This document shows, piece by piece, positions 19,527-52,482 of a DNA stretch of 64,000 bases; the stretch's first letter is position 1, and every line of letters begins with the position of its first letter. The translations under genes and the position numbers were made by a program. Source of the DNA: Bradymonadia bacterium (lineage in GTDB: Bacteria > Myxococcota_A > Bradymonadia > UBA7976 > UBA1532); contig JBKAGE010000038.1 of the NCBI GenBank assembly GCA_046290225.1, positions 265,491-329,490 of the forward strand, given 5' to 3'. The notes below the pieces were generated by a model. It did no database searches. It was given only the letters and a program-made list of their open reading frames with translations, and had not been told where the DNA came from.

Positions 19527-20198
19527 TCACCCGAAGTCTCGAGCCAACCCACGAATTTTGTGCTGCCAGTTGTAGACCACCTGTGTGTTTACCCCGAGGG
19601 CCTTCGCGGCATCTGCCGGTGAGCACCCATCGACGTAGAGCGCTCTCAGAACGAGACGACCACGCTCGGGCAGTTGGGCGTCCAGATGGGCGAAGAGTGC
19701 CTTAGCTTCAGAGCGAGCAGCCACCTGACGCTCTGGATCTACCTGCTCGTCGGCGATTTGGCCCATGACCTCGGGGTTCACCGCCTTCTGGTCCCCTCCG
19801 CGCTTTTGAGCCAGGCGTTTGCGCAAGATGCTCACCACCGTGCGCTCGGTCACCACCCCAACATAGCCCTCAAAGCTGGCCCCACGATCAGGCTCGAAGG
19901 CCATCAGGCGCTTCCCGCTCTCTTCGAGCAAAGCCAGCCAGACCTCCTGGGCATACTCGTCTCTCACGTCAGAGGCTACAGGTCGACGCCAATGACGCCG
20001 TAGGGTGTAACCCACCTGCGCCCGAACCACCGGCAACAGACGGCGGACCAGGCGGCGCATGGCCAGGGTGTTGCCCGAGAGGGCATCCCGCACCAGCGCA
20101 GCGTCGGCTTCGGGGTCTGAGGTTTGGCGTTCGTCGCGGCCTGCAGCCCCCACTGCCGCGGCGAACAACCCCAATATCCAGGAGAAGATGAGGGTCAT
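19527..20198 (-). CDS. ECF-type RNA polymerase sigma-70 factor
   Basis: Region 2-like DEYAQEVWLAL...FEP.RGASFEGY; region 4-like LPERGRLVLRALYVDG.SP.DAAKALG. Confidence 0.88.
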   Translation of the reverse strand: MTLIFSWILGLFAAAVGAAGRDERQTSDPEADAALVRDALSGNTLAMRRLVRRLLPVVRAQVGYTLRRHWRRPVASDVRDEYAQEVWLALLEESGKRLMAFEPDRGASFEGYVGVVTERTVVSILRKRLAQKRGGDQKAVNPEVMGQIADEQVDPERQVAARSEAKALFAHLDAQLPERGRLVLRALYVDGCSPADAAKALGVNTQVVYNWQHKIRGLARDFG

Positions 20199-21103
20199 CA
20201 GGGCGGCTGCTCTCCTCGATAGGTGACGGGGATCTCGATCCAGCGCAGGGCGCTGTTCTCTCGGGCATTTTTGGCGGTGGTGCCTGCGAGCCCCTCGAGG
20301 CCCTTCGCTTCTTTGGCCAGGGCGACATACACGAAGCGCTTGCCGGTGCGCGTACCGAAGATCGCACCGGCTTTGGCCTTGAGCAAGAAGGCGCCCTTGC
20401 GCTCCTTGATCTCGGTGGTGACGGCCTTCAGGCCCTCAGGGGTGTCAACAAAGACCTGCAGCGCGGGTGCCTTCCCGTCTGGGGCTTGCTCGGGCTTCAG
20501 GGTGATACGGATCTCGCTCACAGCGTCGAAGATGCGCTTGGCGTGGGGGTCCTCCTCGCCACGGATCTCTTGAATCATGCCCTGAACGGCGGCGACCTGG
20601 TAAGGCGAAGGCGGGGGCAGGCTGTCGGGGCGCATCAGCACCAGCACCAGGGCAGCAGCGGCGGCGATCACCCCGCTCCCGGCCCACGTGGTCCACCTTT
20701 TGGGAAACGGCACCACATTGCTGGGGCCCTCCTTGATGTTGGACGCTTCGCTGGAAGAAACAGCCTTTGCGATTCCGGCGCCTTCACCTTCGAGGAGGGT
20801 GTCGGAGTTGACCTGTTTCTCGATCTCGCCCACGGCCCACTGCTCCATGTCGCCAAGGGGCGCATCGAGGTCGTAGAGCATGGCTCTGGCGGCAGGATCT
20901 TCGACGAGCGCCTGCTCCACCTCGGCGGCCTCTTCGTCGCTGAGCGTGCCAGCCCGTAGAGCGAGGATGGTCTCGAGGGGTACCCCCTCGCCCTCTGGCT
21001 CAGCCGCTTCTTCATCTGGTGACGATGGCAAGTCTTCGAGCACGCCACCGAGGGCCCGGAGTCGGGCGTCGAGGGCTTCGTCGTTGGGTGTGTGCTCGGT
21101 CAT
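20198..21103 (-). CDS. Single-pass membrane anti-sigma factor-like protein
   Basis: N-terminal degenerate ZAS-like segment GTLSDEEAAEVEQAL; NVVPF followed by TM IAAAAALVLVL; extracytoplasmic domain; TGATG coupling to the sigma gene; AAGGA precedes ATG 21103. Confidence 0.75.
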   Translation of the reverse strand: MTEHTPNDEALDARLRALGGVLEDLPSSPDEEAAEPEGEGVPLETILALRAGTLSDEEAAEVEQALVEDPAARAMLYDLDAPLGDMEQWAVGEIEKQVNSDTLLEGEGAGIAKAVSSSEASNIKEGPSNVVPFPKRWTTWAGSGVIAAAAALVLVLMRPDSLPPPSPYQVAAVQGMIQEIRGEEDPHAKRIFDAVSEIRITLKPEQAPDGKAPALQVFVDTPEGLKAVTTEIKERKGAFLLKAKAGAIFGTRTGKRFVYVALAKEAKGLEGLAGTTAKNARENSALRWIEIPVTYRGEQPP

Positions 21104-21227
21104 GGCGCGTTCCTTTTGGACCCTGCACGGGCCCACCGGCAGTCTGACACATTCTGACGATGGGCTCACCTTCTGTGGGTGAGCTCACTGGGATCTACGT
21201 GAAATGGGGTGGTGCTCTTTTGGTAAG

Positions 21228-21527
21228 AGAGAGTTTGTCGGGCACGGGCACGGGCACGGGCACGAGTTGATACATATTCTGACCCGTGGCCCTTCCTGAA
21301 CTCAGGGCGAAGGTTACAACTGAAGCTGAGATGATGTGTTGTTGAACGACCTGAGAGTTCAGGTCTTGGGGTGTATGGAGGCCAAAAGTCGCACTGAGCA
21401 AAGCGTGGGGCTGGATGAAGGCTCCACCATCACAAACCCATGAGCGGAGTCATATAGGACAACGGGTCCAGATATGTATCAACTCGTGCCCGTGCCCGTG
21501 CCCGTGCCCGTGCCCGAAAAACTCTCT
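21228..21527. mobile_element. 300-bp MITE-like element with ~65-bp inverted repeats containing (CGGGCA)n
   Basis: Left arm AGAGAGTTTGT(CGGGCA)4CGAGTTGATACATAT; right arm reverse complement AGAGAGTTTTT(CGGGCA)5CGAGTTGATACATAT; no convincing internal gene. Mobility is inferred. Confidence 0.6.
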
Positions 21528-23895
21528 ATTTAAGCTGCATTGCCGAGGTATCCACAGCCCACGCCTTACCGAACTGAGTAATGGTGGCCACGAGCTGGGC
21601 TTTCTCGATGTTCACGATGCCCTTGGGCACCGCGAGATACTTGAAGAAGGCGCTGTCACCGGGGCGATAACCCTGACCATTGCTGGGCACAGCCAGGGGG
21701 AGGTAGGCCTGCTTGCCGTATTTGTCGGTGAGGAGCAGGTAAGGGCTGGTGAAGCGGGTGGTGGCGATGTCGTACTTGCTGCTGAAGTTGATGCTCACAT
21801 TGAGGTAGGGGAAGAGGTTGAGTACGGCGCAATCTGGACAGAGGGGCACTCGAGGCTGCGGGCCCACAGCACCAAGCGCATCACGACGCAGTCGGTCAGG
21901 CGGCTCACCCACAATCTGTGCAGGGCCAAAGCGCACATCATCATTGTTGGTGCAGTCCGTCCAGTCTACGCATGCATCATCACTCGTACCTGGCGCGTTG
22001 GCGGTGCACTGAGGTGCCGGCTCGGCCCCCTCCGGATCATACCCTGGCGGATTCCCGGGGAACGCATCACACACCTCCAGCCACTCCGCACATCGATCGA
22101 TGACATCAGGGCCTTGGCCTTGAGCCAGGCACCCAATGGCGGAGAGCAGCTCCCCACACTGCACCAGGTCATCAGCCGCCCCGACATTGAGAGCCCGCAC
22201 TGGATATCCCTGCCATGTTGAACGGTTGAGGTCATATGCGGTCAGGTAGAGCAGATCGCTCAGCTGGGCCCCACTCAACCGGGGTACTAGAGGGTCTGCG
22301 CTCCGCGCAGCGCCCAGATATGCCAACGCCCGTGCGAGGGCGCCCGTGGTCAGGGCAGCAGACACCGAAGTGCCCGTGTATGCTTCTGGGGCACCCGCGA
22401 GCGCACCTTGGGGTGTGAACACGTGCGCCCCTGGTGCGACGAGGCGGGGCTCTGCCAAGGCTCGGGGGATCGACACACCTGTCGGGGTGCCACGGGCATT
22501 GATCGCGCCGACAGCAAAAGACAGCGCCTCCCCCGCAACACATCCTTGCTGTTGATCAGACTTCACAGTGGTGCGGCTGTACTCACCAGGAAACAGCATT
22601 GGAGGCCGTGTAAGCTCTCCTCCGAGCCACCACCCATCTGTGCACGCGTCGAGGGGCTGGTTCTCATCCACCTTGTGCAACTCGGCCCGCTCACCGTTCA
22701 GTGGGCGATTGCCTGCAGCGGCAACGGCGAGGATCGGCCTCGCTGCAGTGTCCTGCTCCTGGGCGACAGCGAGCATGTAGCGCACCACGGCGCCAACTCC
22801 GTCCTCCTCTATGGCACAGCCCGGGCCACGAAGCGTACGTACACGCTCGTATTCTGGTAGCCAGCCGAGGCTGAGGTTCAACAGCAGGGGCCGGGCGGGG
22901 TCGAGCCCGTACACGGCCTCATCGATGGCCACACCCGTGAAGGCGGTGACCCCGACCCCTTCTGCGTCCATCACTTGCCAGGAGAAGATCTCTGCCGCTG
23001 TATCCGGCACCATCTGACGGATAAAGCCCACCATGGCGTCACCATGCTCGTTCACCCCAGCAGCAGCAGGATCAGGGTAGCGCCCCACGACGTCCACAGT
23101 GGGGATCGCCGCGTTGGAGACCCCAGTGTCGATGAGAGCGATTTGAGGCAGATCCCCCGCTGGTGGAGCGGGGACCTGCTGAGCAGGAGCGACGCTCATA
23201 TAGTCGAGGTGCCATCGATCGACCCCCGCCATCGGGCTGACGTTGCACGCCTCTCGCCCGATCTTCACCTGAGCGGCCTGAGCTGCGGTGAGACCATAGT
23301 CGGGGGCGAGCTGTGACACGATCTGACGCACCTGGGCGACAGCGTTGCATTGGGCGGGACCCAAGATGGGCAGGTAGGGATCCTGAGCGATGCCCTGGCC
23401 CACAAATCGAATACGCCAGAACCGCTGATGGCCATCAGCACGCCGACCATTCACATCTCGAAAAGGCAACACCGACGTCACCTCAACATCGACGCCGTTG
23501 CCGATGGCTGTACGGCATGGATCCCCACACGCATCGGCAGCACAAAACCAGGACTCGTCCACCACCCCAGTGAGCGCATCGTCGAGCTCTGTTTGGAACG
23601 CGCCCAAGAGTGGGTTCTGGGGTACCTCACTCGGCGCAGGTAGCCAAAGTGGGAAGTCCACGAAGAGCACTCGGGCTTCAGCACAGCTGTAGGGCGCCTC
23701 CGGCTCACCCGCGATCCCCAAGCTGGGGGGGGATGGATCACAGGGCCCCGGCGCAGGCTCTTGAGGCGTAGCAGACTGTATACATTGATTCTGAGCAGCA
23801 CTCTGGCCCGCGAGGAGCAGGCCCGTGATCATGAGCAACATCACACGTGAGTGCTGCATGAAGGCTGAATGTTGTCGTGCTCGGTGCATCTTCAT
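21526..23895 (-). CDS. Secreted S8 (subtilisin-like) serine peptidase
   Basis: IALIDTG (Asp), EHG (His), NLSLG, AAAGN (oxyanion hole), GTSVSAA (Ser); signal peptide. Start approximate (23895 or 23889). Confidence 0.88.
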   Translation of the reverse strand: MKMHRARQHSAFMQHSRVMLLMITGLLLAGQSAAQNQCIQSATPQEPAPGPCDPSPPSLGIAGEPEAPYSCAEARVLFVDFPLWLPAPSEVPQNPLLGAFQTELDDALTGVVDESWFCAADACGDPCRTAIGNGVDVEVTSVLPFRDVNGRRADGHQRFWRIRFVGQGIAQDPYLPILGPAQCNAVAQVRQIVSQLAPDYGLTAAQAAQVKIGREACNVSPMAGVDRWHLDYMSVAPAQQVPAPPAGDLPQIALIDTGVSNAAIPTVDVVGRYPDPAAAGVNEHGDAMVGFIRQMVPDTAAEIFSWQVMDAEGVGVTAFTGVAIDEAVYGLDPARPLLLNLSLGWLPEYERVRTLRGPGCAIEEDGVGAVVRYMLAVAQEQDTAARPILAVAAAGNRPLNGERAELHKVDENQPLDACTDGWWLGGELTRPPMLFPGEYSRTTVKSDQQQGCVAGEALSFAVGAINARGTPTGVSIPRALAEPRLVAPGAHVFTPQGALAGAPEAYTGTSVSAALTTGALARALAYLGAARSADPLVPRLSGAQLSDLLYLTAYDLNRSTWQGYPVRALNVGAADDLVQCGELLSAIGCLAQGQGPDVIDRCAEWLEVCDAFPGNPPGYDPEGAEPAPQCTANAPGTSDDACVDWTDCTNNDDVRFGPAQIVGEPPDRLRRDALGAVGPQPRVPLCPDCAVLNLFPYLNVSINFSSKYDIATTRFTSPYLLLTDKYGKQAYLPLAVPSNGQGYRPGDSAFFKYLAVPKGIVNIEKAQLVATITQFGKAWAVDTSAMQLK

Positions 23896-23988
23896 CCTCT
23901 CCGTCACCTGATGGGCCAGGGCCCCCAATGCCCTGAACCTACGCAGTTCCACGACGACTTCTTTTGGCGTCGGCGCTTTCGAGGCTGA

Positions 23989-26706
23989 TCACCTCGACCA
24001 CAGCCGAAAGGCTCTCCACACCTCGTCACCACGCTGCTGGGCTCGCTTTTGGGCCTCGTGAAAGGCCCTCGGCGTGCCCTGGGTAGGATACAGGCGATAG
24101 AAGTCTTTCATAAACTCTAAAGACTCCCCATCCTCAATTGGCCGTTCGGTCCCCACGACGAACCGGGCACCTGCGATCAAGAACGCCTCTGGTAGGCCAA
24201 TGCGAGCACCCCCTTTGACATTGCCTCCCTTGCCGGTGTCGCACCCATTGAGCACCAGAGTCTCTGCTTTTACTTGTGTCTGAAGCACGTCTTCCACGCT
24301 GAGGGTCTGACGCTCACTCAACCTGAGGTGTGAGGTCCAAGGATCTCCGTGTCGAATCACGCCATGGCCTGCAAAGTGAACGAGGCGGCTGTGTTGAATG
24401 CTCTCGATGAGGTTCGCTCGGGTGGCTTCGGAGCCAACCTTGAGGTTGATCTGCAGTGCGTTGTTGCCGAGCAGATCATTCAACGCCTGAGCCTCAACTC
24501 TCGCACCAGGTAGATTGCTTTCGGGGTCTGCCAGAAGCGTGAATGGCCCTTCGGAGAGCGCAGACGAAACACCAGGCACAGGCACCATGCTCGTCACGAG
24601 ATGGCGTGCACTGAGTGGCTGGCCGTTCAACTCGAGCTCAGCAAGATCGAACTCACGGAGCGGGCTGGTCAGCAAAACCTGAGTGCCCTCCCCCAGGGTA
24701 CGCTTCGTGAGCCATGCCTTGAGCGTCTTCGAGTTGCACTCGCTCAAGTAATGATCTTTGAATGCAACCGCCTCGGCGGCTCGATGGAGCACCGTACAGG
24801 CATCGCCTGAGGGATAGACGATGAGTTCAAAGGTGTGACTACCCGCTTCAGGGCGGATCGCATAGCGAGTCGAATGCGTATCGGAGGGCTTGAAAAAGGC
24901 GCTCTCAACCTCTTTTTTCAGGCTGTGTTTGATAGCCTCGGCCTGACTGTTCAATACCCTAATCTCACGCTCATCATATGCCAGCGCGATCTCTGATTCG
25001 AGTGCCTCTAGACGCTTCTTGAGCAGCCTGGCTCCTTGACTCTCAGACACACTCCGTTGGGCAACCTGATACAACACAGTATAAAAATTGGATACGGCGA
25101 GCATGATAACAGTCTCCACACAATCGGTATCCATCTGGGATTGGCAGAACCCCATCGCCTCTGAAAAGACATCACCATTGTCGCCAATGTAGCTCGAAAA
25201 CCCGTGTCGTGCCGAGGCATTTGCCGCCGACGCCACCAATAGCCCCGACGCCTTGAGATACATTGTACGTGCCTCTACATGCGCCTTCTGCGCTCGATAC
25301 ACACGTGCGAGCCCCAAAGTAGCCCGCCAGACGAGATCTGATGCCTCACTCCGGGTCTGGCTCAGTTCGGCATCGAGAAGGGCCTGATAGCCACTCATGG
25401 CCTCTGATACCTGCCCACGTGAGAACGCCAGCTCAGCTCGAATGAGACGCCAGAGCCTCTGGCTTTCGGGCTTCATACGGCCTTTTAGCCTGTTCAGATA
25501 TGCCTCTGCCCTTTCGAGTTCTCCATATTGGTACTCGAACCACGCTAAGTTAAGCGCTGCTGAAACCTCGACATCCTCTTCTGACAGTGCCTTTGCATGC
25601 TCTAAGAGATCAACCAAAGCCAGTTTCGACTGTTCGACCTTCTGATTTTGCTCAGATGCTGCATTGGCATTAAGTGCAATGCCTAGAATGCCAGCTTTGC
25701 CCTGCAGGCAGTAGGAAGCTGGAAGACCTTCACATCCCTCGACAATACTCAACAATTCAGGCAATAGCTGGCTGACCCCATCGAGTCGCCCAAGTCGATA
25801 GTTCACATCAAGAAGTTCCAGTCCCAAGGCACTTGTTTCCATTGGACTACCCCCTCCTCTGGAAACAGTATATGCCTCTCGATACTTCAATAGAGCTCTG
25901 TGAAACTCAGACTCAGTAATGAGTTTGAGGGCTTCGTAGTAGAGTCCCCTCGCCCGCCCCCCATAGTCCACCTCCAGCACATATCGCTCCCCCGCCTTCA
26001 GCATCCCCGTCACATCATCCAGTCGCATGTCCATCAGCGCGTAGTACGCACACGCCCGATGTCGCGCCCCTGCCTCTGAGACCCAGCCCAGCGACTCCGC
26101 AGTCTTCGCCGCCTCGAGCCACATCTCGCAGGCCTCCCCCTGTCGCCCCAGGCGTCCGAGCACGCGGCCCAGCTCCACCTGAGCCCACATCAGGTCTTCG
26201 CCCTTCAGCTCGGTAACCCGCGCCCTCAACAGCGCTTCCGCCGGCTTCAGCTCGCCTTTCTTGCGCAGCTTCACCGCCTCAGCCTGGGTCGGGCGCTCAC
26301 CTGGAGGCACGTCCCAGCGGGCGCGCCAGCGGCCCACCTCTCGCTCGTGGGCGTCTACCAGTCGCAACACCCCAGAGCTCAGCTCAGGCAGGCCCTCGGC
26401 CTCCACTTGGAACAGCCAGCCCCCCATGCGCTCCAGCAGCTTCACCTTCAGCGGCCGCTCGGCCCCTTGCGCGGGTGCCCAGAGCACCTGCCAAGCCTTC
26501 ACTTGAAGCGGACCCTCCACCCGGACCGATGGGCGCTTTTGCGCGTCGAACAGCCAGATCTCATCGCGATGAATCGCGCGGTAGCCCCAGAGTTGTAGCG
26601 CCACCGACTCCATCGGTGGAGGCGCGGGCTTTGGCGCAGGCGGAGGCTCCGAGCAAGCCCCGAGCAGGGCCATCCAGACGCACAGCCAGATCGTACGGTG
26701 ACCCAT
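23989..26706 (-). CDS. Lipoprotein with TPR-like repeats and C-terminal CHAT (caspase-like) protease domain
   Basis: Lipobox ALLGAC; helical TPR-like centre; NLPGARVEA, VHFAGHG (His), LVLNGCDTG (Cys), AFLIAGARFVVGT, WRAF. Confidence 0.88.
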   Translation of the reverse strand: MGHRTIWLCVWMALLGACSEPPPAPKPAPPPMESVALQLWGYRAIHRDEIWLFDAQKRPSVRVEGPLQVKAWQVLWAPAQGAERPLKVKLLERMGGWLFQVEAEGLPELSSGVLRLVDAHEREVGRWRARWDVPPGERPTQAEAVKLRKKGELKPAEALLRARVTELKGEDLMWAQVELGRVLGRLGRQGEACEMWLEAAKTAESLGWVSEAGARHRACAYYALMDMRLDDVTGMLKAGERYVLEVDYGGRARGLYYEALKLITESEFHRALLKYREAYTVSRGGGSPMETSALGLELLDVNYRLGRLDGVSQLLPELLSIVEGCEGLPASYCLQGKAGILGIALNANAASEQNQKVEQSKLALVDLLEHAKALSEEDVEVSAALNLAWFEYQYGELERAEAYLNRLKGRMKPESQRLWRLIRAELAFSRGQVSEAMSGYQALLDAELSQTRSEASDLVWRATLGLARVYRAQKAHVEARTMYLKASGLLVASAANASARHGFSSYIGDNGDVFSEAMGFCQSQMDTDCVETVIMLAVSNFYTVLYQVAQRSVSESQGARLLKKRLEALESEIALAYDEREIRVLNSQAEAIKHSLKKEVESAFFKPSDTHSTRYAIRPEAGSHTFELIVYPSGDACTVLHRAAEAVAFKDHYLSECNSKTLKAWLTKRTLGEGTQVLLTSPLREFDLAELELNGQPLSARHLVTSMVPVPGVSSALSEGPFTLLADPESNLPGARVEAQALNDLLGNNALQINLKVGSEATRANLIESIQHSRLVHFAGHGVIRHGDPWTSHLRLSERQTLSVEDVLQTQVKAETLVLNGCDTGKGGNVKGGARIGLPEAFLIAGARFVVGTERPIEDGESLEFMKDFYRLYPTQGTPRAFHEAQKRAQQRGDEVWRAFRLWSR

Positions 26707-30161: not shown

Positions 30162-30206
30162 TCAGGGGCCCCGCGCTGGGGCTTTCTGGCTCAAGCCCCC
30201 CCCTGA
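30162..30206. terminator. Possible hairpin terminator between convergent genes
   Basis: TCAGGG...GGGGCTT-loop-AAGCCCC-CCCTGA nested stem; no U-tract. Confidence 0.35.
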
Positions 30207-30221: not shown

Positions 30222-31712
30222 TCAGTACCAGAGGGCCTTGAGCTCCCCCACCGCCTGCTTGACCCGCTCTGGGGTCAGCCTCGCCATGTCCATCAGATCG
30301 AGCACGAACTTCACCGCGGTCCGCGGGTTGGTGAACGAGCCATCTGAGAGACCATTGAAGATCAAATCACCGATGAGGCCCGCCAGTGGCTCCACCCGAG
30401 GCAGCAGCTTGGGGTGACGCTCGGCGTAGATCTGCACGATGCGCCGGGCCATGGCCCGATAGTCCTCGGTGTTCAGGGGGGACAGCTCGGTGAGTCGATG
30501 ACTCGGCATCATCTCTGTGAGCAGCGTCTCCCCTTCGGCAGTGGGGGTCATGGCCATGACTGTGTAGAGCGGACAATCCCCCGGGAACCGATGGGGCAGT
30601 GACTTCATGGCGCCTCGGCCACCCTTGGGCTCGGCCTCGGGGGCAAAGGGCAGCTCGTCAGGGGGCAGCGAAGCCGCCACGAGGGCCCGGAACAGGCGCT
30701 CGGCGAAGCGCCTGTTCTCGGCGCCGAGCACACGGAACAGCTCCCCCTCATCGAGCAGGATCACCAGCCCCTTGTAGCCCGCGCAACGGCACAGCCCCGC
30801 CACCCCGCTGATGAGGTGGGCATAGATGTGAGCCCAGGGGCGATAGTCCATCATCGCCGGCAACGCCCGCTTGTTGTAGAGGCTGAACCGGCGGTTCATC
30901 GCCGGGGTGTGCTCCTGGGGCGCCCCTTCGAGCCATTCGATGACCGAGGCGGCCTCTTCTTCGTCGATGCGGGCGAGCAGCTTCAACGCCGGCGTCAGGT
31001 AGGGGTGGGGCACGACCGGATCGAGGAACCGGGTGTTCAGGCTCGCCGACTCCGTGGCCAGCGCCCGCTCCAGGAGAGGCTGCAGGCCGCGCCCCCCCTC
31101 CCCCTGGCCGTCGATGGCGGGGTGGCGCAGGCTCTTCATGAGCCCGCGGTACACCCGGCGGGGGTTGCTCGCAGGCACGTCGACGGGATCGAGAGAGACC
31201 ATCCCCACGGCAAAGCCTGCATCGAGGGCGCGGGCGGCGATGCACTCGAGCAGGTGTGTCTTGCCGGTGCCATAGTCGCCGAGAAACACCCGCGCGGCGC
31301 CGCGGGCTTCTTCGGGGCTGTCGATGCAGGCCTTCAGATCTGCGTCGATGCGCGCCAGCTCTCGATCGCGGCCCACAGTGTAGAGTTCGAGGCCTCGGGC
31401 AGGCACTGTGCCCAAGCGCAACGCCTCGAGCAGCTGCAGACGATCTCGGGACAAATCGGGTGCGGTGAAGTCACCGGGCGGCTCTGGTGGCGCGCTGGGC
31501 TCGGGCTCTGGCGGCAGGCCACCTTGAGGGATGAGCTGGCCTACGGGCAGCTGGATGTCCACGCGGCCCAGATCGTCGAAGCGGACGAGGGCAGCGCGGC
31601 CCGCCCGCACCAGACGCACCACCTCGCCGGCGCCATGGATACGATGGGTAATGCGATCTCCGGGCTGCAACACCCGCCGGGGTGAGGCTTCAGAAGTCGT
31701 CAAAGCCATCAT
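30222..31712 (-). CDS. BrxD/DUF2791-like P-loop ATPase with N-terminal SH3/Tudor-like domain
   Basis: LEALRLGTVP..GL...TVGR; Walker A GDYGTGKTH; Walker B GYKGLVILLDEGE; NPRTAVK. Confidence 0.82.
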   Translation of the reverse strand: MMALTTSEASPRRVLQPGDRITHRIHGAGEVVRLVRAGRAALVRFDDLGRVDIQLPVGQLIPQGGLPPEPEPSAPPEPPGDFTAPDLSRDRLQLLEALRLGTVPARGLELYTVGRDRELARIDADLKACIDSPEEARGAARVFLGDYGTGKTHLLECIAARALDAGFAVGMVSLDPVDVPASNPRRVYRGLMKSLRHPAIDGQGEGGRGLQPLLERALATESASLNTRFLDPVVPHPYLTPALKLLARIDEEEAASVIEWLEGAPQEHTPAMNRRFSLYNKRALPAMMDYRPWAHIYAHLISGVAGLCRCAGYKGLVILLDEGELFRVLGAENRRFAERLFRALVAASLPPDELPFAPEAEPKGGRGAMKSLPHRFPGDCPLYTVMAMTPTAEGETLLTEMMPSHRLTELSPLNTEDYRAMARRIVQIYAERHPKLLPRVEPLAGLIGDLIFNGLSDGSFTNPRTAVKFVLDLMDMARLTPERVKQAVGELKALWY

Positions 31713-33012
31713 CCTCTTCGTCGGCGTCGAGCAGCGTCTGGGCGCCCCCCATCACCCGCGCCCCAGCGTCGACGGCGTCGATTTGAGTCTCACCCGAGAG
31801 CGCCTGCTCCGTGAGCAACGCCACCCACGACTTCACGAAGATGCGCCGGTGGCTCACCTCGAACTGGGCCTCAGAGGCCTCTTCGGCGAGGGCCCGCAGG
31901 TTTCGGCCCTGCACCTCAGGGTCGAAGCGCCGTTTTCGGGCGATGGAGAAGACCTCCAGAATTCGGGCCCCGATGGCCTCGAGCAGCTTCGCAGGGGGCA
32001 GGTCGAGGGCCTCGAGATCGATGAGGGCCGACTGCGGGCTGGTCACCGAGAGGGGCACGGGGCTCGACAGCCGCTGCTGCAGCGCGGGGTACTCGGGCAC
32101 CACGTTCCGCAAAAACTCCGGCGGCACGGCGTAGGCCACCATGACCCCCGGCAGCGCCGACTTGCCGCACAGATCCACCATCTCCCGCAGATTGTCCGTG
32201 AGGCGGGTGCGGTTGCGGGTGGTGGCCCCGATGCTCAGGTTGCGGTCGAGCTCGTCGAAGAGCAGCACGGTGCCGGTGAACTCGAGGCCCTTGAGGGCCT
32301 GACACACACCCCGCAGCATGGCGAAGGCGTTGCTCTTGGTGATCGATTCGAAGACCCCCACCTCGCGGTGACTGCTCGGCGGCACCTCTTCACCGAGCAG
32401 CCAGGCGGCGAGTACATCTTGCTTGCGCAGATCGTCGTCGAGCACCGCGAGGCCATACTCGGAGATGGCGTTGCGCAGAGAAGGGCTCTCCACAGGCAGG
32501 TTGCGCACGGTGCGGTAGAGCCACGCCCGGACCGCCCGATCGCCGTGCTCGTCCCGACGGGCCTCCACGAGATCCCGCAGCAGATCGGGCAGCCCCGTGG
32601 TGGGCAGCAGCGGCTCGTCACCGGGGGGCGGCGCCCGCAGGGCCTTCACCACGGCCCGATAGACCGCCAGGGGCTCGTGGAACGGACACTCGGAGGGCGA
32701 GAGCCCCACATAGGCGCTGGCATAGCCCGAGGCCCAGGCGAGATCTCGCAGGCACATCAGGAAGTGGGTCTTGCCTCCGCCGTAGTAGGCCTGCACCAGC
32801 TTGAAGGTGGATCCCCCGGCAGGGAGCAGCATGTCGAGATACTCGTCGCGGATCACGTCGAGGTAGGTGTGGTTGCCCACGTTGATGTGAGCCACACCAC
32901 GCTCTGGAGGTGTACCCGTCTCTCCGAGGCTCTGGATGATGCGCATGGCCTGGGGCCTGGAGAGCGCGTCTACGGCGTCGGTGGCTGTTGCTACGTGAAT
33001 GTCATCGCCCAT
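31690..33012 (-). CDS. BrxD/DUF2791-like P-loop ATPase
   Basis: IIQSLGETGTPP..GV..INVG; Walker A AYYGGGKTH; Walker B VLLFDELD; YPALQQRL. Confidence 0.82.
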   Translation of the reverse strand: MGDDIHVATATDAVDALSRPQAMRIIQSLGETGTPPERGVAHINVGNHTYLDVIRDEYLDMLLPAGGSTFKLVQAYYGGGKTHFLMCLRDLAWASGYASAYVGLSPSECPFHEPLAVYRAVVKALRAPPPGDEPLLPTTGLPDLLRDLVEARRDEHGDRAVRAWLYRTVRNLPVESPSLRNAISEYGLAVLDDDLRKQDVLAAWLLGEEVPPSSHREVGVFESITKSNAFAMLRGVCQALKGLEFTGTVLLFDELDRNLSIGATTRNRTRLTDNLREMVDLCGKSALPGVMVAYAVPPEFLRNVVPEYPALQQRLSSPVPLSVTSPQSALIDLEALDLPPAKLLEAIGARILEVFSIARKRRFDPEVQGRNLRALAEEASEAQFEVSHRRIFVKSWVALLTEQALSGETQIDAVDAGARVMGGAQTLLDADEEDDGFDDF

Positions 33013-33013
33013 C

Positions 33014-33868
33014 TCAGGCTCCTGTCCGCTTGAGGGTGAACGACAGGTAGTACTGACCGCCTCCGGGGCCAGACTCCAAGAACAGCACCTTCTTCTTTTG
33101 AGAGGCAGAGCCTGCGGTGGCGGTGCCCAGCACGATGCGCCATCCGCCTTGCTCCAAGGCTCGAGCTTTCTGCAGCTGATCGAGCTCCCAGGCGAGGCGC
33201 GCCCGGGTCACGGTGATCAGTCGGCGTGGATCCTGTCGCTTCCAGAAAGCGTCGCTCTGCCGCGCCGGCAACAGCTCGGGGATGAGATCGACGAGGAACA
33301 CACGCTCACCCCCTGGCAATGACTTGCGGCCGAGGAGGGCTCGATAGGCCCCGGTGATCTGCTCGAAGACCTCTGCGGCGTCGAAGCCCCCCGAGGTGAG
33401 CTCGGCCATGGCCTTGCCCACCCCGCTGACCAGCGCTCGGGGCTCTGCTGAGACCTCCGTCAGGGGCTCTCGGGCGTAGCAAACCTTCGCCACGCCCTTG
33501 TCGAGATCGAGCACCGCCGTGGCCTCTCCAAGGCGCACCTCGCTCTGGGTGAGCCGGGCGAAGGCCACCCCCTGGCTCTGCGCCTCGGCCTTGAGTCCGT
33601 TGAGGAACTGCATGCGCCAGGCCCCGCGGGCTTGCTCTATGGCCCCCTTGAGGGCATCGACGGTGGCCTGCTCGATGGGGGCGCAGGACAACGCGGAGAG
33701 GGCGTCGAGGGCCTTGAGCGCCGCCACGGGCGAAGTGGCGGGATCACCGACGGCCTTGAGGGCCTTTTCGGCGGCGGTGGCGGCCTTCAGGGCCTGCTTC
33801 ACCGCATCTCGGGCCTCGCCCCAGAGGGTCGCGAGATCGCCGTCTTGGGGAGGGTGAGCTGAGGTCAA
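33014..33868 (-). CDS. Hypothetical protein, first gene of the ATPase operon
   Basis: AGGAG lies 7 nt before TTG 33868; helical N-terminus; 1-bp gap to the next gene. Confidence 0.75.
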   Translation of the reverse strand: MTSAHPPQDGDLATLWGEARDAVKQALKAATAAEKALKAVGDPATSPVAALKALDALSALSCAPIEQATVDALKGAIEQARGAWRMQFLNGLKAEAQSQGVAFARLTQSEVRLGEATAVLDLDKGVAKVCYAREPLTEVSAEPRALVSGVGKAMAELTSGGFDAAEVFEQITGAYRALLGRKSLPGGERVFLVDLIPELLPARQSDAFWKRQDPRRLITVTRARLAWELDQLQKARALEQGGWRIVLGTATAGSASQKKKVLFLESGPGGGQYYLSFTLKRTGA

Positions 33869-34079
33869 TGAGATACTCCTGGGCCGTGATTGCCGGCGCA
33901 CGGCCTGTGAAGGCTCACCGCGTCCTTCGCGCGTTGCACTCTGGACGCGGTGTTTTGAGATCTGGGATTTGGAATCAGGGGTTGAAAGAGGTGGTATAGG
34001 AATCTTGCGGCGTGATCCAGCGTCACTTGGACACCTCGTTTTGAAGCCCGGAACACCACGCACCATTCATTGAGAGCCC

Positions 34080-48337: not shown

Positions 48338-48363
48338 CTTGACACCACAGGGTGGGAGACAAG

Positions 48364-52482
<4,119 letters not shown>

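Follow-up and report, generated by a model that had tools for sequence, protein, structure and literature searches.

A stretch of 64,000 nucleotides from a Bradymonadia bacterium (the window, part of contig C38 of an 8.6 Mb genome) contains three adjacent genes, termed A, B and C. A encodes a small protein, and B and C encode two BrxD-like AAA+ ATPases. In related genomes the trio is the front of a conserved four-gene cassette, whose fourth gene, D, lies outside the window and encodes a superfamily 2 (SF2) helicase. The explanation preferred here, a tentative one with slightly less than an even chance of being right, is that the cassette encodes a split ORC/Cdc6-like loader of an Lhr-like helicase that serves genome maintenance, and that the genome under study keeps its helicase elsewhere, without catalytic motifs.

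Conservation of the cassette and state of the helicase gene

A profile search with A in 301 genomes of the phylum gave 74 matches. They fall in 70 genomes (about a quarter), are clumped by family and are single in 66 of the 70. Sixty of the matching loci, from 58 genomes, were retrieved; the genome under study, 11 other genomes and two second pieces were left out. The order is A-B-C-D in 40 of these loci and A-B-C in 14 (one at a contig end), while two have A-B at a contig end and four have A alone. The order A-B-C is therefore kept in 54/60 related loci, which is not due to chance. Thirteen named loci found with B include 11 with A-B-C-D and two at a contig edge; some are the same DNA as loci in the set of 60. 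Among 80 metagenome loci, the 38 with room on both sides comprise 33 A-B-C-D and five A-B-C loci. The first-pass annotation had proposed that the trio acts as a self-contained module. The trio is conserved, but in general it is not self-contained, since D adjoins it in 40/60 loci and is present in 60/70 A-bearing genomes.

Co-occurrence was counted with D defined as matches above 500 bits. The 301 genomes divide into 60 with A and D, 10 with A only, 7 with D only and 224 with neither, in counts where kin are not independent. Five of the seven D-only genomes were retrieved; three have full cassettes with a divergent A and two are cut by contig ends. Thirteen A-B-C loci have visible downstream DNA, and for these D is found elsewhere in seven genomes and in a second full cassette in one, while a search of the other five gave no D-clade gene.

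Several variants of the layout were also seen. In one genome (G003, loci L053 and L099) A lies apart from B-C-D on another contig, so the cassette can also be split at another point. A distant B-C-D-like variant in which A was not detected occurs at L108 3355-7430, and a 1870-aa helicase related to D occurs at L107 4841-10453. In four loci (L062 5194-9036, L068 2244-5932, L074 1059-4645 and L077 9384-11707) a homolog of A is located directly behind a DndD-like SMC ATPase gene and a DndH-like HerA/FtsK gene, and three of these loci continue without B, C or D. The A family may also take part in a second system.

D is Lhr/BrxHI-like, and its nearest named PADLOC models are BrxHI (221-271 bits) and SngC (178-224 bits). 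The groups in the D tree are similar to those in the B and C trees (all trees were made with FastTree). The genome under study has a D ortholog on another contig (C71:119494-121350), with a frame that is open for 619 codons. Walker A, DExH and motifs V and VI have all been lost, and the barrel region has a deletion of about 60 residues; Walker A, DExH and motif VI are intact in the D proteins of relatives. The best match of this ortholog in close relatives is either the cassette D or an intact D that has been relocated. In the tree it groups, with a support of 100 and a branch of 1.32, in the seven-member family clade that the B and C of its own genome also join. The first-pass annotation had found no helicase, PglX, PglZ or TerB next to the trio. 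None was found among the window neighbours scanned with Pfam and PADLOC, but the missing helicase is a local and derived state, since a degenerate ortholog exists on C71 and the family normally has D. The ortholog diverges by 60% from its closest kin without a stop or frameshift, and its GC content at third codon positions (GC3) is slightly lower, at 0.78. That the frame is still open at this divergence suggests that the protein remains under selection in a non-catalytic role.

Domains and motifs of the encoded proteins

Both ATPases pass the hidden Markov model test for the DUF2791 type, with PF10923 (BrxC_BrxD, Pfam) scores of 133.5 bits for B and 105.4 bits for C against a cut-off of 22.2. 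B has the Walker A motif AYYGGGKT (K81) and the Walker B motif LLFDE (D253-E254), a likely arginine finger (R314) and a likely sensor-2 arginine (R390). C has GDYGTGKT (K151), ILLDE (D321-E322) and a likely sensor-2 arginine (R464). The sensor-2 and arginine-finger labels are positional, and that of the finger is modelled on BrxD as described in the available text of PMC12839542. Walker A, Walker B and the sensor-2 arginine show no or almost no variation across 68 sequences each of B and C. R314 of B is part of an invariant Y-x-A-L-x-x-R motif and is kept in 68/68 sequences; five outgroup rows have a looser form of this motif. The matching stretch of C has no column with arginine in more than 23/68 sequences. 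It is likely from this pattern that B has an arginine finger and that C has none.

B and C are paralogous yet divergent, as the first-pass annotation had described them. The pairwise alignment is good over the N-terminal 99 residues only (35%), and the profile-profile comparison covers 359 columns with a probability of 99.8. The two ATPases form separate clades (support 99 and 100) with similar sub-groups; both are distinct from BrxD and lie apart from five single-ATPase outgroup rows. The pair is therefore old and was inherited together, with some transfers. The branches of the window B and C are short, at 0.31 and 0.42. No solved structure matches B by sequence. The idea that the two ATPases form a heteromer with A as the adaptor fits the motif pattern.

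A has an N-terminal helical hairpin, a middle alpha/beta domain (residues ~80-161) and a C-terminal predicted winged helix (~162-284) that includes a conserved LGxATxxS loop. At E<=0.001 the family comprises 660 representatives. Pfam and NCBIfam give no match for A, and PADLOC gives a single weak one, to a MukB-like model. The AlphaFold2 model of A has a predicted local distance difference test (pLDDT) score of 94.7; a single-sequence fold of the C-terminal domain was poor (pLDDT 41.7) and was not used. An unbiased VIA-align search of residues 162-284 against 48,161 chains gave 8s0e_G as the best match (Z 6.6, root mean square deviation 3.5, 80 aligned residues), and further matches include 7jpo_A (ORC, Z 6.0) and 1fnn_B (archaeal Cdc6, Z 5.2). 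Cdc6/ORC1 chains rank top in two fold searches, of which one was unbiased. These middling Z values would indicate a winged-helix fold and not kinship with Cdc6/ORC1. Foldseek found no match of A at E<=0.001, and an Atlas search returned unnamed clusters only. There is no TerB-like chain among the listed fold matches of A, which does not exclude one. In P0096 and P0112, each of about 730 aa, a complete A domain is combined with a phosphoglucomutase, either as a real fusion or by read-through.

The N-terminus of C contains a barrel of about 50 residues that is present in 52/67 homologs. With the family profile, UvrD/PcrA C-terminal domains are the top 9 of 15 PDB matches (E 2e-8 to 0.014); single C members fall below the Pfam cut-off. 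The barrel has an invariant histidine. According to the available text of PMC8318588, RpoB and UvrB carry a hairpin, [VIL]-D-x-x-T-G-E, that is bound by the UvrD/PcrA Tudor domain. A looser V-D-x-x-T-G hairpin is present in 52/64 D proteins, compared with 0/5 outgroup helicases. Docking to RNA polymerase was considered as the main model and set aside. The residue K712, which PcrA needs for RNA polymerase binding (PMC5397179, in the text available), is not kept in C, and the N-terminal part of the RpoB of this genome has no D-x-x-T-G hairpin. In the UvrB and UvrD pair of the same genome (C35:413764-415833 / C46:60898-63288), the UvrB hairpin is D-P-L-R-G-R and not of the T-G-E form, and the binding strand of the UvrD Tudor domain lacks a lysine; the two may have changed together.

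The preferred loader reading would assign one task to each part. B, with its arginine finger, would oligomerise head to tail. C would accept the finger of B and offer none, which would cap the chain and leave an open, directional oligomer. A would supply in trans the winged helix that is missing from BrxD-type ATPases, and would bind DNA with it. The Tudor domain of C would hold D through the V-D-x-x-T-G hairpin, or would hold another partner with such a hairpin. ATP hydrolysis would then release D on its substrate, which is probably a stalled fork, a transcription conflict or an RNA:DNA hybrid. In the genome under study, the trio may serve another partner or may act without an active motor.

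Helicase loader or defence system

The cassette resembles the type 2 BREX pair BrxD-BrxHI, in which a PF10923 ORC/Cdc6-like ATPase is also located beside a Ski2/Lhr-like helicase. The available text of PMC12839542 places BrxD among the ORC/Cdc6 ATPases, notes that it has no DNA-binding domains and proposes it as the loader of BrxHI. Unlike this pair, which has one ATPase, the cassette has two divergent ATPases, and it adds the predicted winged-helix protein and the Tudor domain. The type 2 BREX genes PglW, PglX, BrxC/PglY and PglZ gave no match among the scanned window neighbours or among 121 flanking open reading frames (ORFs). B and C score 118.8 and 86.3 bits against NF033438, the NCBIfam BrxD equivalog, and fail its cut-off of 350. 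With the PADLOC BrxD model, the true BrxD of the same genome scores 548, compared with 117 and 86 for B and C. This BrxD belongs to a complete type 2 BREX on contig C57 (L019 1-16265) with PglW, PglX, BrxC, PglZ, BrxD and BrxHI, and neither the BrxD nor the BrxHI of that locus groups within the B, C or D clades. A BrxHI-like helicase is not found beside the ATPases in the window; in relatives it is adjacent (40/60) yet forms a separate clade. The BREX locus on C57 also contains an unknown ORF on the opposite strand between brxD and brxHI.

The Shango system consists of the TerB protein SngA, the ATPase SngB and the helicase SngC, a layout that the PADLOC model names follow. The cassette has a similar compact, stand-alone layout with a first gene, a DUF2791 ATPase and an SF2 helicase. 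The TerB domain and the defence activity of Shango are described in bioRxiv 10.1101/2022.05.11.491447, as far as its available text goes. Unlike SngA, A has no TerB (Pfam) or SngA (PADLOC) match and has a predicted winged-helix end. Two ATPases are present in place of one, and both score weakly with the SngB model (44 and 57 bits); no helicase is adjacent in the window, and the cassette is not in defence islands in the sampled loci. The cassette thus fails membership of both type 2 BREX and Shango, with weak PADLOC matches to BrxD and SngB, which agrees with the initial suggestion that the trio is possibly uncharacterised. It would nevertheless work like the ATPase-helicase dyad of these systems.

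ORC/Cdc6 loaders belong to the same AAA+ clade (per the available text of PMC12839542) and likewise have unequal subunits; they also have a winged helix, and the predicted winged helix of A has Cdc6/ORC1 chains as its top fold matches. In the cassette, unlike in these loaders, the predicted winged helix belongs to a protein of its own, and a monomeric SF2 helicase takes the place of MCM as the presumed client. The UvrD/PcrA Tudor system is similar in that the N-terminus of C is homologous (E 2e-8) with an invariant histidine and D bears a similar hairpin. The arrangement is inverted, with the Tudor domain on the ATPase and the hairpin on the helicase. HerA/FtsK capture and BREX-related capture systems were rejected for the main cassette after comparison with the available text of PMC12839542 and PMC10853773. 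No description of the cassette was found in the searched literature, which excluded supplementary neighbourhood tables that may list it.

The genomic context is more like that of a maintenance function. Whole families carry A (10/10, 17/26 and 10/13), mostly with one match per genome, close relatives have an upstream neighbour in common, and many neighbours are ordinary enzymes. Flanking ORFs were chosen crudely in 33 related loci, with long ones cut to 600 residues. PADLOC matches at 1e-15 occur in 9/121 of them, a raw count without a background rate, and two of the nine are phospholipase D enzymes. None of the nine is a BREX core or TerB gene. Plasmids have no close copy, with four weak matches at 25-28% identity of which none covers 80%; a scan of viral contigs for D alone found no relative. 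Lhr-type helicases unwind RNA:DNA hybrids and forks, according to the available text of PMC8301817, and by analogy repair or transcription-conflict substrates are suggested for D. The proposal of a defence or stress module is not favoured by this context on its defence side, and enrichment in defence islands is not apparent from nine matches for which no background rate is available.

Several observations weigh against the loader reading. Whole families are without A in the sample (0/23, 0/18 and 0/19), the trees show transfers, and the closest relatives of B, C and D are all defence proteins (BrxD, SngB, BrxHI and SngC). No LexA-like box was found upstream, where six LexA-type patterns match 0 or 1 of 61 regions and a conspicuous shared palindrome is lacking. 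The Z values for the winged helix of A are below 8, and unrelated winged helices are close behind at 5.2-5.5. The hairpin glutamate is usually replaced in D, mostly by Arg, Gln or Asp, and the strand that holds K712 in PcrA has no conserved lysine in 53 C sequences. Tudor domains also occur on BREX helicases (available text of PMC12839542). The D hairpin persists in 10/12 cases where C lost its Tudor domain, and the C of the genome under study retains its Tudor domain though its D lost the hairpin region. The two features therefore do not change together, and a correlated loss was not seen. In five sampled genomes that keep A-B-C, no D-clade gene was found among the contigs (drafts, 92-99% complete).

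The strongest alternative is that the cassette is an uncatalogued Shango-like anti-phage system, in which A would sense, B and C would load and D would unwind invading DNA, with the copy studied here crippled or rewired. This is doubtful. The matches of B and C to BrxD/SngB and of D to BrxHI/SngC, the patchy distribution across families with transfers, and the four loci with an A homolog behind DndD-like and DndH-like genes are all consistent with it. However, the flanks are poor in PADLOC matches, as far as crude ORFs without a background rate can tell, and whole families retain the cassette. D is often relocated from the trio yet intact (7/13), and the cassette has no TerB match and no nuclease.

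It is also conceivable, though distinctly unlikely, that the trio has a helicase-independent job, for example as a DNA-binding ATPase clamp on RNA polymerase or on another hairpin partner, with D as an optional accessory. The intact A, B and C of the genome under study have normal GC3, and the short B and C branches compare with 1.32 for D. Its C keeps the Tudor domain in spite of the lost hairpin in D, and A-B-C without any D found occurs in five more genomes. Against this, 60/70 A genomes keep a D-clade helicase, the N-terminal part of the RpoB has no D-x-x-T-G hairpin, and the absence of D from drafts that are 92-99% complete is no proof. It is very unlikely that this copy is a relic on its way out in which the decay began with D and has yet to reach A-B-C, since the lost motifs, the deleted barrel residues and the slightly lower GC3 of D are set against 619 codons without stop or frameshift at 60% divergence, which suggest continued selection, and against window B and C proteins that deviate at only 1 and 2 columns, respectively, of those conserved at >=85%, all conservatively.

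Features of the locus and biological meaning

The features of the trio are listed in the table. The three genes, their sizes, the 1 bp gap between A and B, the 23 bp overlap between B and C and the intact Walker A and B motifs are all as first annotated. The N-terminus of A has the same length in the closest homolog. The GC content of the trio is ordinary for the window, and the GC3 of A, B and C is 0.82-0.85, which is normal.

Table. Positions of the trio genes and their sequence features in the window
Feature	Position	Strand	Size or placement	Assignment
Gene A	33014-33868	minus	284 aa, TTG start	no Pfam-named family
Shine-Dalgarno-like AGGAG	33876..33880	minus	7 nt upstream of the TTG of A	read from sequence
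Gene B	31690-33012	minus	440 aa	BrxD-like AAA+ ATPase
Gene C	30222-31712	minus	496 aa	second BrxD-like AAA+ ATPase
Predicted winged-helix domain of A	33017..33385	minus	residues 162-284	fold matches
Tudor-like barrel at the N-terminus of C	31524..31676	minus	residues 13-63	UvrD/PcrA C-terminal domain homology

An inverted repeat at 30178-30199, between the converging ends of C and a 759-aa gene, may be a terminator. In the close relatives L022, L023, L025 and L026, the element GTATCAC is located ~10 nt upstream of the start codon of A. It resembles a -10 box that would give a nearly leaderless mRNA. The counterpart in the window is GTATCTC, which overlaps the spacer of the Shine-Dalgarno sequence of A.

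The window also contains features apart from the trio. A minus-strand cluster at 19527-26706 encodes a CHAT protease, an S8 peptidase, an unknown gene and an extracytoplasmic function (ECF)-like sigma factor; within the region of this cluster, at 24-26 kb, the GC content falls to 0.53-0.57. The only rpoC of the genome stands alone at 48352-52482. The only rpoB is on contig C78 in a ribosomal protein cluster, with an rpsL-like gene directly after it, so the usual rpoBC pair is split.

A wider reading of the preferred loader explanation is rather unlikely as it stands. The cassette would be a three-protein bacterial ORC-like loader and the ancestral housekeeping machine behind the BrxD-BrxHI and Shango motors, and in some lineages, the present one among them, it would run without an active helicase.

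For BrxD and SngB, a helicase-loader role is at the stage of a proposal (available text of PMC12839542). The cassette splits the loader job into separable parts, which would be a polymerising ATPase, a capping ATPase, a DNA binder and a helicase-gripping surface. Through these parts the loader idea becomes testable by point mutants. Natural variants without an active helicase, such as the one in this genome, are a test of whether the ATPases also function by themselves.

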